DNA from: an uncultured Bacillales bacterium
Lineage (GTDB): Bacteria > Bacillota_I > Bacilli_A > RF39 > UBA660
Assembly (NCBI GenBank): GCA_947571655.1
Contig: CANOYR010000008.1
Coordinates: forward strand, 1,386-65,385
Reading direction: 5' to 3'
Length of the DNA stretch: 64,000 nucleotides
Positions 3,786 through 23,086 of the stretch are shown one piece after another. Numbering within the stretch: the first letter of the stretch is position 1; every line of letters starts with the position of its first letter. The notes under the pieces are model-generated. The model saw only the letters and a list, made by a program, of their open reading frames with translations. It was not told the DNA's origin and did not search any database. Both the position numbers and the translations under genes were made by a program.

Positions 3786-4220
3786 ATGGCAGGTATCTAT
3801 GAACGTGCAGCAGAATTTAAGAAAAAATTTCCAATGACAATTGCTTGGCGATTAAAGAAGAATTCAAAAATTGTAGAAAAATACTTAAAAGATGATGAGA
3901 AGGTGTTATATGTATTTGCTGCACAAAAAAATAATAACCCATTTGATATTTTTACTAGTGCAGTGATTGCTTTAACGAATCAAAGAATTATCATCGGAAG
4001 AAAGAGAGTGATTTTTGGATATTTTTTTGATTCTGTCACTCCAGACTTATTTAACGATTTGAAAGTGTTGTCTGGTGTTATTTGGGGAAAAATTCATATT
4101 GATACGGCCAAAGAGTTTATTACGCTTTCAAATCTTGATAAACAATCCCTTCCTCAAATCGAAGAAATGGTTGGAGTTTGTATGAAGAATAAAAAGCAGC
4201 AAGTAAGAAGAGAAATGTAA
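3786..4220 (+). CDS. Bacterial PH-domain (bPH/YokE-like) protein
   Basis: RBS AAAAGGGGGA then ATG 3786. Pattern LTNQRIIIGRK...GKIHI typical of bacterial PH folds. Confidence 0.35.
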   Translation: MAGIYERAAEFKKKFPMTIAWRLKKNSKIVEKYLKDDEKVLYVFAAQKNNNPFDIFTSAVIALTNQRIIIGRKRVIFGYFFDSVTPDLFNDLKVLSGVIWGKIHIDTAKEFITLSNLDKQSLPQIEEMVGVCMKNKKQQVRREM

Positions 4221-19560: not shown

Positions 19561-19874
19561 ATTAAAAAAATGATGTGTGATTACAGAAAAGATATTTTGA
19601 CGATTGTCAAAGGGTGTCTTTTCTTTTTTTATGAGTGTAAATCGAACAAGAAAAAATTAAAAAAATTGAAAAAATCAAAAATTTAAAAATTGCTTTTTTT
19701 GAAAAAAGTAAGATTTTTAAAAAAGTCAAGAAAAAAATAAAAAACTTTTTTATTGTTATATTTCAAAGGTACTATAACGATTTCAAAGAAAAATATAAGA
19801 AAATAAAAAAAAGAAAAAAATTAAAATTAAGAAAAAGTCAAAATGTCAAATTTTAAAAAAATTAGAAAAAATAT

Positions 19875-19903
19875 TGACTGTCGATTTCTAAAAATACTAC
19901 AAT
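19875..19903 (+). promoter_or_regulatory. nrdD promoter TTGACT-17-TACAAT
   Basis: Hexamers at 19875-80 and 19898-903, ~40 nt before the RBS GGAGGA. Confidence 0.5.
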
Positions 19904-19942: not shown

Positions 19943-22261
19943 ATGACAGAAACGATAGACAAGTTAGAAGAATTATTAGTAGTCAAAAGAAATGGTAAAA
20001 AAGTGGACTTTGATAAGACAAAGATTGCTCTTGCTGTAAAGAAAGGCTTTGACAGCATTTCTAGGAAAGAGGAAGAAGATTTAGAAAAGCCTCTTTATAC
20101 TGAGAAAGATATTCAAAAAGTATATCAATCAGTAGTAAATAAAATTGAAAATGAGTATCTTTCGATTGGTAAAATTAAAATTGAAGAAATTCAGGATATG
20201 ATTGAAGAAGAACTTGAAAAAAAAGGATATCAAGATGTGTATCAGTCTTTTTCAAACTATCGTGAGAGAAGAAATCAATCTAGAAAGTCTTTCTTTGATG
20301 ATAAGAAAACACATAAATTTTTAAAATCATTAGAAAATCTTGGATTAAAATCTGCGAATGAAGAAGATGCGAAGAGAGAAAATGCAAATATTGATGGGAA
20401 TTCACCAATGGGAACTATGCTTCAATATGGTGCGACAGTTTCTAAAGAGTTTGCAAAAGCATATTTAATGAAGCCAGAATATGCAGAGGCTCATGATAAT
20501 GGGGCGATTCATATTCATGATATGGACTTCTTTGCAATGGGAACGACAACTTGTTGTCAAATCGATTTATCAAAATTGTTTAAAAATGGTTTTGATACAG
20601 GTCATGGATATGTAAGACCTCCACAAGATATTTCAACCTATGGGTCTCTTGCTGCTATTGTTATTCAAGCAAATCAAAATGATCAACATGGTGGTCAGGC
20701 AATTCCAGCACTTGATTATTATCTTGCTCCAGGAATATTAAAAACTTTTAAAAGACAATTTAAACAAATGATTTATGATTATATTGATTTGATGGGATTT
20801 TGTCCATTTATTAATATGGACCGTTTGGCTAAAGAAATTGATAAATTAGATAGTATTGAGTTTGATATTAGTGAGCTTTATAGCTTTGCGAAGGATTCTA
20901 CAAGAGTTCAAGAAATTTTAAATAAAAGTTATGAGAAGGCACTTGAGAAAACGAATCGTGCTACTTATCAAGCGATGGAGGCGTTGATTCATAATTTGAA
21001 TACGATGCATTCTAGAGCTGGTGCACAAGTACCATTTTCTTCTGTGAATTTTGGAACAGATACTACTCCAGAAGGAAGAATCGTAATTAAAAACTTTTTA
21101 TTAGCACAAGATGAAGGTTTAGGTCGTGGAGAAACTCCAATTTTTCCTGTATCTATCTTTAAAGTCAAGGAAGGAATTAATTATAATAAAGAGGATAAGA
21201 ATTATGACTTATTTCAACTTGCTTGTAAGGTATCAGCAAAAAGATTATTTCCAAACTTTTCATTTATTGATGCTCCACATAATATTGGATACTATCATCC
21301 AGGGGATCCTAATACTGAAATTTCTTACATGGGATGTCGAACTAGGGTCATTGGAGATGTTACAGACCCAAATCATGAAGTGGTTACTGGACGTGGAAAT
21401 TTATCTTGGACAACGATTAATCTTCCAAGACTTGGAATCAAATATGGGATTGCATTAAAGGAAAGAGAAACAGCCGATATGAAAGGTTTTTACCAGGAAT
21501 TAGAACAATTAATGGATATGGTAAAGGATCAATTGTTAGAAAGATTTGAAATACAGTGTAATAAAAGATGTTATAATTTTCCATTCTTATTAGGACAAGG
21601 AGTTTGGACCAATGGAGAAAAATTAAAACCGACAGATAGGTTAAGAAAAGTATGGAAACATGGGTCGCTTTCTATTGGGTTTATTGGTCTTGCAGAATGC
21701 TTGAAGGCTTTGACTGGGAAACATCATGGTGAGAGTACAGAAAGTCAGAAATTAGGTTTAGAAATGATTCGTTTTATGCGTAAAAAATGTGATCAATATT
21801 CAGAAAAGTATAATTTGAACTTTGCATGTCTTGCCACTCCAGCAGAAGGTTTGGCTGGTAGATTTACAGGAATTGATAAAGCTATTTATGGAAAAATTAA
21901 AGGAGTTACTGACCGTGCTTATTATACGAATTCTTTTCATATACCAGTATATTATAATATTAGTATTGTGGGAAAAATACAGGCAGAAGCCCCTTATCAT
22001 GAATTAACGAATGGTGGACATATTTCTTATATTGAACTTGATGGGGATGCAGCTCAAAATGTAGAAGCTTTTGAAAAAATTATTCGTATTATGAAAGAAT
22101 CAGGAATTGGGTATGGTGCGGTTAATCATCCAGTAGATAGAGATCCAGTATGTGGATATGTTGGGGTTATTCATGATGTTTGTCCAGGATGTGGAAGACG
22201 TGAGTTTGAAGGAATTCCCGTTGAGAGACTGACTGGGGAAGATTGTAGTTGTGGTAGATAA
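19943..22261 (+). CDS. nrdD: Anaerobic ribonucleoside-triphosphate reductase catalytic protein (ATP-cone plus RNR-III core plus Zn ribbon), lacking glycyl-radical tail
   Basis: ATP-cone VVKRNGKKVDFDKTKI. Class III RNR length. C-terminal Cys4 cluster CGY...CPGC...CSCG, then stop. Confidence 0.85.
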   Translation: MTETIDKLEELLVVKRNGKKVDFDKTKIALAVKKGFDSISRKEEEDLEKPLYTEKDIQKVYQSVVNKIENEYLSIGKIKIEEIQDMIEEELEKKGYQDVYQSFSNYRERRNQSRKSFFDDKKTHKFLKSLENLGLKSANEEDAKRENANIDGNSPMGTMLQYGATVSKEFAKAYLMKPEYAEAHDNGAIHIHDMDFFAMGTTTCCQIDLSKLFKNGFDTGHGYVRPPQDISTYGSLAAIVIQANQNDQHGGQAIPALDYYLAPGILKTFKRQFKQMIYDYIDLMGFCPFINMDRLAKEIDKLDSIEFDISELYSFAKDSTRVQEILNKSYEKALEKTNRATYQAMEALIHNLNTMHSRAGAQVPFSSVNFGTDTTPEGRIVIKNFLLAQDEGLGRGETPIFPVSIFKVKEGINYNKEDKNYDLFQLACKVSAKRLFPNFSFIDAPHNIGYYHPGDPNTEISYMGCRTRVIGDVTDPNHEVVTGRGNLSWTTINLPRLGIKYGIALKERETADMKGFYQELEQLMDMVKDQLLERFEIQCNKRCYNFPFLLGQGVWTNGEKLKPTDRLRKVWKHGSLSIGFIGLAECLKALTGKHHGESTESQKLGLEMIRFMRKKCDQYSEKYNLNFACLATPAEGLAGRFTGIDKAIYGKIKGVTDRAYYTNSFHIPVYYNISIVGKIQAEAPYHELTNGGHISYIELDGDAAQNVEAFEKIIRIMKESGIGYGAVNHPVDRDPVCGYVGVIHDVCPGCGRREFEGIPVERLTGEDCSCGR

Positions 22262-22306
22262 AAATCAAAAAAATAGAAAAATAAAATAAAAAAGGAGAGA
22301 TAAATA

Positions 22307-22477
22307 ATGGAAAAAGTAGTAGGAGAAGGAAAAGGATTTGAGAGAATTCGAAGAGTTACAGGATATTTAGCAGGAGATGTTTCTAGATTTAATAATGGGA
22401 AGAGAGCAGAAGAAAGAGATCGTGTAAAGCATAGTGGATATAAGGATATTTGCAAGGAAGCAAAAAAAGAAAATTAA
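22307..22477 (+). CDS. Stand-alone 56-aa NrdD glycyl-radical domain peptide (RVTGYL motif)
   Basis: Not in ORF track (<60 aa). AAAGGAGAGA RBS 7 nt upstream. MEKVVGEGKGFERIRRVTGYLAGDVSRFNNGKRAEERDRVKH matches the NrdD C-terminal glycyl radical signature (R-x-x-G-Y...FN-GK...R-x-H). Same frame as nrdD, separated by 45 nt with 4 stops. Confidence 0.5.
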   Translation: MEKVVGEGKGFERIRRVTGYLAGDVSRFNNGKRAEERDRVKHSGYKDICKEAKKEN

Positions 22478-22478
22478 G

Positions 22479-23042
22479 ATGAAAATTCGTCTAGCAGCAG
22501 ATTTACAAGCAGATAGTATTGTCGATGGTGAGGGAATTCGAACGGTTCTTTGGACCCAAGGGTGTCCTCATCATTGTCCGGGATGTCATAATCCACAGAC
22601 ACATGATTTTAATGGTGGACTTTTGGTAGATATTCAGGATGTGATGGATGCTATTTATGATTTAAAAGGACAAGATGGTCTTACGTTTTCTGGAGGAGAT
22701 CCATTTACACAATCTAAGGAGTGTTCCTTAATTGCACGTTTTGCGAAAAGTATTGGGTTCAATATTTGGTGTTATACTGGTTATACTTTTGAGCAACTTC
22801 TTGCTCTTTCTAAAAATCAACCTGAAATTATGGATTTTTTAAAAGAAATTGATATTTTAGTAGATGGAAGATTTTTATTGGCGAAGAAAAGTTATAGTGC
22901 ATTATTTCGAGGAAGTACGAATCAAAGATTGATTGATGTAAAAGAAAGTCTGAAGCAGAATCGGGTTGTTTTAAAGAAGGAGGGAGTAGAGAAATTGGAA
23001 ATTTCGTTTTCTCCTAGAAAAAGACAAGGACTCTATGTATAA
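22479..23042 (+). CDS. nrdG: Anaerobic RNR activating protein (radical SAM)
   Basis: CPHHCPGC = CxxxCxxC near the N-terminus. Immediately follows the nrdD pieces. Start chosen at ATG 22479; the track ORF's GTG at 22434 would overlap the small ORF. Confidence 0.8.
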   Translation: MKIRLAADLQADSIVDGEGIRTVLWTQGCPHHCPGCHNPQTHDFNGGLLVDIQDVMDAIYDLKGQDGLTFSGGDPFTQSKECSLIARFAKSIGFNIWCYTGYTFEQLLALSKNQPEIMDFLKEIDILVDGRFLLAKKSYSALFRGSTNQRLIDVKESLKQNRVVLKKEGVEKLEISFSPRKRQGLYV

Positions 23043-23044
23043 TA

Positions 23045-23067
23045 GAAGTGGGAACACTTCTTTTTTT
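23045..23067 (+). terminator. Rho-independent terminator between nrdG and folD
   Basis: gaagtg gga a cacttc followed by T7. Confidence 0.5.
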
Positions 23068-23086
23068 GTTTGTGGGAGGAATTTTT

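Follow-up and report, generated by a model that had tools for sequence, protein, structure and literature searches.

The nrdD gene stops before its radical glycine

The window analyzed here is a 64-kb stretch of DNA from an uncultured gut bacterium of the Bacillales (RF39/UBA660; assembly GCA_947571655.1, contig CANOYR010000008.1). It contains three adjacent genes for an anaerobic (class III) ribonucleotide reductase (RNR), and these genes, like all of the window's features described below, lie on the + strand. The first gene, nrdD-large (19943..22261; ATG at 19943, TAA at 22259-22261), encodes a catalytic subunit of 772 amino acids that does not contain the radical glycine. Instead, the glycyl-radical loop (RRVTG19Y) is in a separate protein of 56 amino acids, MEKVVGEGKGFERIRRVTGYLAGDVSRFNNGKRAEERDRVKHSGYKDICKEAKKEN, which is encoded by the second gene (22307..22477). 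The predicted radical residue of this small subunit is Gly19 (codon 22361-22363). The third gene, nrdG (22479..23042), encodes a radical S-adenosylmethionine activase of 187 amino acids (TIGR02491, Fer4_12, and Radical_SAM).

The large protein ends in ...CPGCGRREFEGIPVERLTGEDCSCGR (or, with more of the sequence included, ...NHPVDRDPVCGYVGVIHDVCPGCGRREFEGIPVERLTGEDCSCGR), and its stop codon comes 21 residues past the zinc ribbon (Zn-ribbon). These 21 residues, RREFEGIPVERLTGEDCSCGR (22196..22258), are the tail of the large subunit. The A-rich intergenic spacer that follows is 45 nt long (22262..22306) and contains two further in-frame stops and a ribosome site, AAAGGAGAGA (22291-22300), whose Shine-Dalgarno (SD) motif GGAG (22294-22297) is 9 nt upstream of the ATG at 22307. 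An earlier reading of this DNA, made from the letters alone (the sequence-only reading), had described a 772-residue NrdD that ends at a TAA, a gap of 45 nt, and then, in the same frame and with a dedicated ribosome-binding site, an open reading frame (ORF) of 56 codons next to nrdG. Every one of these coordinates checks out. That reading had also counted four stop codons between the ORFs, which is one too many: same-frame read-through meets three (TAA, TAG, and TAA).

The three genes look like a single transcription unit, because there is one promoter-like site, no internal terminator, a terminator past nrdG, and apparent coupling of the last two genes. The promoter-like site (TTGACT-18-TACAAT, 19874..19903) lies upstream of nrdD and has 10 of 12 matches in a consensus scan; it is a consensus match only, and the density of such sites in the region is not above that in shuffled sequences. 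A terminator scan found nothing in the 45-nt spacer or elsewhere inside the operon. Downstream of the small ORF, the sole terminator-like site is a hairpin followed by a T-run (23044..23071), which resembles an intrinsic terminator and closes the three-gene operon. The start codon of nrdG is just one base past the stop codon of the small ORF (TAAgATG), and this one-base gap suggests coupling by termination and reinitiation. On related contigs, gene callers place the start of nrdG at an upstream GTG (22434-23042 in the window), which would give a protein of 202 amino acids and an overlap of 44 nt with the small ORF; alignment to NrdG profiles and to relatives favors the ATG at 22479 (187 amino acids).

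The spacer has no match in Rfam at E ≤ 1 and contains no ORF, intron, intein, or homing endonuclease gene (HEG). Across the whole operon, the lone Rfam match was a chance hit to a snoRNA inside coding sequence, and no intron or riboswitch was found.

The break lies inside the glycyl radical domain

The large protein has a Pfam ATP-cone at residues 12-111 and an NRDD domain at residues 146-757 (profile positions 1-535 of 562). It scores 625 bits against PF13597 (cutoff 26.2), 1000.6 bits against NF005497 (cutoff 764), and 573 bits against TIGR02487 (cutoff 326). Within the NCBIfam model NF005497, the large protein spans positions 3-720 of 746 (that is, about 26 final profile positions are absent) and the small protein spans positions 710-744. 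The small protein also matches positions 533-562 of Pfam NRDD. NrdG scores 147 bits against TIGR02491 (cutoff 126).

For comparison with a structure we used NrdD from Prevotella copri (8P23). In that protein, the glycyl radical domain comprises residues 676-739, Cys171 on beta-strand 1 is the second mechanistic cysteine, Cys416 at the finger loop's tip is the thiyl-radical cysteine, and Asn435 is the signature of the formate-type enzymes (PMC11226230). In HMMER alignments, the large protein of the window matches residues 9-715 of 8P23 (E = 4e-170), while the small protein matches residues 707-740, including the equivalents of Gly711-Tyr712 and Arg719. The break point therefore maps to the inside of the glycyl radical domain. 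A Zn-ribbon remnant with three cysteines, C737-x9-C747-P-G-C750-G (22151..22195; aligned to CLDCGY...CPKCG of 8P23), is retained on the large chain, and the loop and tail (707-740 of 8P23) make up the small protein. Thus, where the sequence-only reading took the detached part to be the radical domain, it is right about the Gly loop and the C-terminal tail, but the Zn-ribbon half of the domain remains on the large protein.

The large chain retains counterparts of Cys171 (Cys204, 20552..20554), Cys416 (Cys465 in YMGCRTRV, 21335..21337), Asn435 (Asn486 in GRGNLS), and Glu581, as well as the NxN flap (ENANIDGNSP, of the form ENANxxxxxP). Judging from these aligned residues, it looks catalytically competent. 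What is absent from the polypeptide with the barrel is the RxxGY loop: the tail of the large protein reads VERLTGED, with no Gly-Tyr, and RRVTGY is found in the separate ORF of 56 codons.

The split is conserved across lineages

The exact 56-residue protein is encoded on at least 20 independently assembled contigs of the same species, which come from different sequencing runs. At the six loci that we fetched, all from independent assemblies, the order is 772-residue nrdD, 45 nt, 56-codon ORF, nrdG, and folD, and the junction is base-for-base identical. A sister species (“Bacillales bacterium UBA7057,” locus L009) has a spacer of 42 nt with substitutions and a 3-nt indel, and the flanking codons are conserved.

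Beyond these two species, a scan of GTDB with one genome per species gave at least 595 confirmed stretches, and we analyzed the best 80. In 66 of these 80 loci, a large NrdD ORF stops past the Zn-ribbon and is followed by a short ORF with the Gly motif and then by nrdG. Of the remainder, four are fused, seven have the small ORF alone, and two or three are cut by contig ends or frameshifts. The large subunits at the GTDB loci are 49-90% identical to the window's, and the GC content of the loci ranges from 28% to 60%. The sources are labeled as uncultured gut Bacilli, as Oscillospiraceae, or, for metagenome-assembled genomes (MAGs), as Butyricicoccus, Mogibacterium, Desulfovibrio, Succinatimonas, or Anaerobiospirillum; many of these labels stem from the binning of MAGs and may be wrong, which counts against the interpretation proposed below. 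The split operon is also present in the cultured isolates Acutalibacter caecimuris and Scatolibacter rhodanostii. All of the 120 closest homologs of the large subunit are 768-806 amino acids long. Since the arrangement recurs in hundreds of genomes, it is far beyond chance and is a family-wide trait.

Adding two look-up neighborhoods and the window itself to the split loci from GTDB gave 68 distinct split loci. Among these, the numbers of loci with relative frame offsets of 0, 1, and 2 between the two ORFs are 23, 21, and 24. The spacers range from 1 to 284 nt (median 34), and all three stop codons are used. In 47 of the 68 loci, the inferred start has GGAG or GAGG 4-20 nt upstream, as compared to 8.5% of random windows.

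These variations bear on whether programmed recoding (read-through, frameshifting, or ribosomal bypass) could join the two ORFs into one NrdD. In the window, where both ORFs share a frame and are just 45 nt apart, this might seem plausible, but three in-frame stops would have to be crossed, the gap contains no RNA element, the offsets in the relatives are spread evenly over all three frames, the spacers can be as short as 1 nt or as long as 284 nt, a gene for SurE can come after the small ORF, and some copies of the small ORF are orphans that have no large gene near them. Because frames, spacers, stop codons, and SD motifs vary in this way, and because of the SurE insertion, we consider read-through or frameshifting to a full-length protein to be excluded, and recoding as a whole is very unlikely.

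The small protein is itself widespread. A word-indexed search found 1787 clusters at 90% identity; the best 120 of these are all 52-76 amino acids long, and some are found on 336-663 contigs. An exhaustive search of 1.84 billion representatives (clustered at 50% identity) with a hidden Markov model (HMM) found 2437 matches, including 1526 with E ≤ 1e-10, and the best 150 are all 45-193 amino acids long. In an alignment of 36 small proteins, M1 to H42 is almost invariant, including the initial Met-Glu-Lys, and the tail is variable. For the core of 37 codons, the median ratio of nonsynonymous to synonymous substitution rates (Nei-Gojobori dN/dS) is 0.11 across 1437 unsaturated pairs (a further 2132 pairs were saturated at synonymous sites). 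Between the window and L009, dN is 0 and the proportion of synonymous sites that differ (pS) is 0.65. For the large subunit, dN/dS is 0.14 at the end of the body and the Zn-ribbon and 0.39 in the first 14 codons of the tail. By these codon comparisons, the small ORF is under strong purifying selection.

The sequence-only reading had also considered that a homopolymer error or a recent pseudogenizing split might have left a broken nrdD and a decaying remnant. A single window would be compatible with this, and the spacer is A-rich and prone to homopolymer errors. However, the junction is identical in six independent assemblies; the divergence of the relatives excludes one mis-assembled template; the split persists among proteins that are 49-90% identical, whichever of the three relative frames the ORFs are in; dN/dS is low, with no nonsynonymous change at all relative to the sister species; the start codon and the SD motif are conserved; and stand-alone small proteins make up hundreds of clusters. 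Given the junctions, the frames, and the selection, we reject this explanation: a sequencing or assembly error or a pseudogene has next to no chance of being correct, and the earlier argument against a simple sequencing error stands.

Alignment to intact relatives shows no missing residues across the gap. The fused relatives read CPxCGR-(6-10 residues)-FERIRRITGY, and since they bridge the two parts with only 6-10 residues, no residue has been lost in the split form. Rather, as compared to the fused form, the large chain is longer by a tail of 16-52 residues, and the small chain by about 10 residues at its N-terminus.

Two variations on the operon were seen among the relatives. In Acutalibacter-type operons, that of A. 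caecimuris included, the gene for the 5'/3'-nucleotidase SurE lies between the small ORF and nrdG (L055 4141-4881; also L056, L069, and L078). In L029 (1569-4711) and L049 (2870-3960), the large nrdD is broken into several frames, as is nrdG in L029, and the small ORF is intact in both. These breaks are probably either assembly frameshifts or real decay.

The tail of the large subunit and the origin of the split

Across the loci, the tails of the large subunits begin with R-x-E-G-E-G-V-x-x-E-[KR]-[LI], which can be compared with G-E-G-V-G-F-E-R-I in the small protein. HMMER places PVERLTG in the window's tail on the Gly motif itself, DKLQRITG(Y) in 8P23. When each tail was locally aligned to the small protein from its own locus, the score was above that of 95% of shuffles in 36 of the 68 loci, which are not mutually independent. 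The long clostridial tails give an ungapped alignment to the small protein of about 34 residues, and hhalign matches them to the small-protein profile across 36 columns (P = 0.003), with a valine in the column of the radical glycine. From these alignments, the tail probably arose as a copy of the radical loop that has since decayed, and the window's tail as a copy of the loop's start. What supports this is the longer tails of some relatives, together with the HMMER and hhalign alignments, and not the window's own tail, which is not significant in the shuffle test (p = 0.29). This non-significant result is a point against the duplication model, as are the hhalign probability for the match between tail and small protein, which is just 10%, and the reliance of the model on short, low-complexity similarity.

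In the duplication model, the 3' end of a fused nrdD would have been partially duplicated. The upstream copy would have lost its glycine and decayed into the tail of the large subunit, while the downstream copy would have gained a start codon and an SD site and become an independent gene. Deletions would occasionally re-fuse the two. In a bootstrapped neighbor-joining tree, 100 of 100 replicates place the fused locus L083 within a clade whose other members are all split, and the other four fused forms are never monophyletic, which together imply at least three changes of state. The linker of L083 (TEADGVK) has seven residues, which is the exact length expected of a deletion between two GEGV repeats. 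The tree and the linker make a case of moderate strength for this history, with a re-fusion in L083.

Orphan and phage copies of the small gene

At seven of the GTDB loci, the small ORF stands alone, in that neither an NrdD body nor an NrdG is encoded within 4 kb of it. In three of these (L026, L050, and L061, at about 4001-4170 in each), the neighboring genes match PHROG families for Holliday-junction resolvases, the terminase small subunit, RusA, and a replication initiator; L061 is from an isolate of Desulfovibrio falkowii. Orphans outside of phage contexts were seen beside genes of oxidative-stress type: rubrerythrin in L084 (4153-4740) and a flavoprotein resembling NADPH-dependent FMN reductase in L072 (2956-3585).

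In IMG/VR, at least 577 stretches were confirmed by a scan, and among the best 80 (L092-L171), 67 have a short orphan ORF, again with neither an NrdD body nor an NrdG inside 4 kb. These viral orphans adjoin genes for RusA, invertases, and proteins resembling the terminase small subunit. The copies in phages look like the operonic copies of the corresponding host lineage. FERTRR, for instance, is shared by the Desulfovibrio prophage copies (L061 and the viral L100 and L101), an operon labeled Desulfovibrio (L057), and its relative L064; similarly, RRVTGYLSGD is common to the phage copies and the operonic copies of Bacilli type. Because orphan copies occur in prophages and viruses and match the type of the host, the peptide seems to be a module that is useful on its own, and from this distribution we consider the small protein to be modular.

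In the loci L091 (3941-4294), L164, and L170 (3653-4117), the Gly loop is at the end of an ORF of 117-154 amino acids, after 70-120 unrelated N-terminal residues. These extended ORFs have no match in Pfam except for NRDD at the C-terminus. A search of INPHARED found mostly the fused NrdDs of large lytic phages, along with nine unverified scaffolds from the human gut; of the three scaffolds that were examined, two are fused and one has an ORF of 117 amino acids.

A small protein with a Gly loop could also act as a regulator or competitive inhibitor, that is, as a decoy, and its phage copies might shut down or hijack the host's synthesis of deoxynucleoside triphosphates (dNTPs). A short peptide of this kind would be expected to bind the barrel, and the effect of the phage copies could run in either direction. 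But neither the radical Gly-Tyr nor any of the residues that in 8P23 contact the flap or the substrate network varies, no other radical source is present on the large subunit, and the gene adjoins that for the activase and is probably translationally coupled to it. We therefore consider a decoy quite unlikely.

A proposed two-polypeptide enzyme

Our preferred interpretation is that the operon probably encodes an obligate two-polypeptide class III RNR, made up of a large subunit with the barrel, a separate radical subunit of 56 amino acids, and NrdG. The sequence-only reading had proposed much the same, namely an NrdD whose radical segment is a separate protein with its own ribosome-binding site, conceptually like GrcA/YfiD; the conservation across lineages, the three frames, the purifying selection, and the identical junctions support it. 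That the radical part would also be replaceable, as was suggested, we infer by analogy.

The scheme builds on the observed anatomy, conservation, selection, co-transcription signals, and phage copies, and for the installation of the radical, the docking, the exchangeability, and the selective advantage it follows the chemistry of class III RNRs and of GrcA/YfiD. The large subunit (772 amino acids) would contribute the ATP-cone, a ten-stranded barrel in which the catalytic cysteines lie, and the Zn-ribbon; the small subunit (56 amino acids), translated from its own ribosome-binding site, would contribute the Gly loop and the C-terminal tail. With the peptide free or bound only loosely, NrdG would abstract a hydrogen atom from its Gly19. 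The loop would then enter the barrel of the large subunit beside Cys465, as the covalent loop does in P. copri NrdD, and catalysis would proceed as in a formate-type NrdD.

Oxygen cleaves glycyl radical enzymes (GREs) at the radical glycine. In the proposed enzyme, oxygen would destroy a peptide of 6 kDa and not an enzyme of 89 kDa, and because the damage would cost just the peptide, the radical carrier could be a cheap, exchangeable cartridge. Alternatively, or in addition, activity might be tuned via the supply of the small part. Phages could exploit the cartridge by carrying the small gene alone. We are evenly divided as to whether NrdD-type small proteins in general are exchangeable radical cartridges. 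As part of the same idea, the enzyme's own loop would have given way entirely to the cartridge in the operonic form, and the lone gene in temperate phages of gut anaerobes would be an auxiliary metabolic gene through which the host's anaerobic dNTP synthesis is boosted or re-armed during infection (for example, after damage by oxygen or nitric oxide).

Besides the uncertain taxon labels, three observations weigh against the two-polypeptide enzyme. First, the Zn-ribbon has three cysteines, not four. The structural Zn site of NrdD has four ligands, arranged as CxxC...CxxC or, in Thermotoga maritima, as CxxxH...CxxC; in the window, only C737, C747, and C750 are conserved, and the first Cys of the canonical CxxC is replaced by Asp, as it is in the relatives. 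Second, when the large and small proteins were modeled with AlphaFold2 as one chain (93-row alignment), the mean predicted local distance difference test (pLDDT) was 69.6, and, from this shallow alignment, residues 729-815 (the Zn-ribbon, the tail, and the small protein) had pLDDT below 50. The model is thus uninformative on docking, and the case for docking rests on homology to 8P23. Third, there could be a second RNR elsewhere in the genome. There is no second nrdD within the 64-kb window, but several gut Bacilli (L001-L004, 1-2312 in each) have a canonical fused nrdD (710 amino acids, 26% identical, CNHCG...CPKCG...IERMNGY), nrdG, and dUTPase directly upstream of the split operon, and L010-L016 also have nrdG-like matches upstream; with a canonical nrdD-nrdG next door in these relatives and just 64 kb in view, a second RNR is possible.

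Many of the proteins have Cys-rich ends (22238-22258 and 22448-22450 in the window). Of the 68 large subunits, 39 end in a CC, CxC, or CSCGR-type motif, and 18 of the 68 small proteins have a Cys past the VKH motif. These cysteines might possibly provide a fourth Zn ligand, a redox pair, or a link between the subunits. We ruled out the tail Cys pair (CSC, CC, or CxC) as a general fourth Zn ligand, as it is found in just those 39 large subunits.

The presence of canonical neighbors raises the question of whether the small protein is strictly a GrcA-type spare part for another, intact NrdD, in which case the truncated large protein would be inactive or would have some different (perhaps regulatory) use. 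Several relatives do have a canonical fused nrdD-nrdG directly upstream, and the orphan and phage copies show that supply in trans is possible. On the other hand, the Gly loop of the canonical neighbor (IERMNGYLSYSRV...) is unlike that of the small protein, while in fused relatives of the split large subunit one finds the small protein's exact sequence, FERIRRITGYLVGT.DRFNN.KRAEE.DRVKH. Furthermore, the large subunit is highly conserved with all of its catalytic residues, the small gene always lies between the large gene and nrdG, and the window has no other nrdD that could be the intended partner. We consider a strict spare part to be unlikely, and we favor the obligate two-polypeptide enzyme.

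Novelty and implications

We found no description of an NrdD with a detached Gly loop in the open-access literature (subscription papers and RNRdb notes were outside the search). Spare-part proteins have been validated for pyruvate formate-lyase (PFL) only, and their existence for other GREs was left open (PMC8683613, J Biol Chem 2021; PMC13450708, review of June 2026). NCBIfam has no model for the small protein, which is named in the databases as “hypothetical protein” or “anaerobic ribonucleoside-triphosphate reductase.” The small protein would be the first candidate for a replaceable or trans-acting radical part for a GRE other than PFL, and from its distribution the operon appears to be an ancient, widespread two-polypeptide form of anaerobic RNR with a phage-borne radical piece.

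This provides a concrete and widespread spare-part candidate for class III RNR, which is an essential enzyme of anaerobes. A two-piece GRE would separate the installation of the radical from catalysis, and the activase's substrate would be a soluble peptide of 6 kDa. One could then examine activation, docking, radical transfer, and oxygen damage one at a time, which has been hard in fused enzymes, where the Gly loop is buried. If the tail is a decayed duplicate, the operon would also illustrate gene fission by partial duplication, with re-fusions later on.

There are also consequences for annotation. The large subunits are labeled as ordinary NrdDs and the small ORFs as “hypothetical” or as fragments, and split NrdDs would be misjudged in any phylogenomic survey that uses the C-terminal motif as a filter. 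In gut viromes, the phage-borne orphans suggest a new kind of auxiliary metabolic gene.

Comparison with known systems

The canonical NrdD/NrdG systems, such as those of phage T4, E. coli, and P. copri (8P23 is the closest solved structure; PMC11226230), have the same ATP-cone, barrel, NxN flap, and finger-loop Cys as the locus, and they also share its formate-type Asn, Zn-ribbon (reduced to three cysteines at the locus), Gly-Tyr radical motif, and adjacent NrdG. In all characterized NrdDs, however, the Gly loop is the covalent C-terminus, whereas at this locus it is a separate gene product. As far as its sequence can tell, the locus is a class III RNR by every testable criterion but one: the radical loop is not on the catalytic chain.

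The nearest functional parallel is with the spare parts of PFL, GrcA/YfiD and Y06I of phage T4. These are likewise small, stand-alone proteins with a glycyl-radical loop, and both systems have phage-encoded versions (PMC8683613, PMC13450708). The presumed logic is also the same, with activation by the partner's activase and insertion into a barrel that has no working loop, and oxygen-cleaved PFL retains a stub of the loop region, as the large subunit of the locus does. However, the small protein does not match Pfam Gly_radical (PF01228) or GrcA (IPR011140), and only NrdD models match it at E ≤ 0.01 in Pfam and NCBIfam, so it is not a member of the GrcA family. GrcA backs up an intact PFL, whereas the small gene of the locus shares an operon with its partner and seems to be obligate, since that partner is always devoid of a radical glycine. 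By analogy, the orphan and phage copies might rescue an oxygen-cleaved partner as GrcA does.

Other systems are less similar. In the split class II RNR, NrdJa/NrdJb, the catalytic chain is likewise divided near the C-terminus, with a functional module on the second polypeptide, but NrdJb has Zn-finger, IscU-like, and redox-cysteine modules rather than a radical site, and with the difference in RNR class the analogy is formal only (PMC9669993). Phage RNR genes can be split by group I introns, inteins, or HEGs (nrdD of T4, nrdA of Aeh1, and Lactococcus phage 949; PMC3653736), so that the coding sequence is also interrupted; those are mobile elements that are spliced out or that lie at arbitrary positions, whereas the locus has a 45-nt spacer with an SD motif, and the break is the same in hundreds of genomes. 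Finally, 4-hydroxyphenylacetate decarboxylase (gamma), benzylsuccinate synthase (beta and gamma), and (1-methylalkyl)succinate synthase (beta, gamma, and delta) also have small polypeptides that bind to a GRE (PMC13450708). Those accessory subunits are Fe-S or rubredoxin-like proteins that carry no radical, whereas the small protein described here has the radical glycine and no conserved metal-binding motif.

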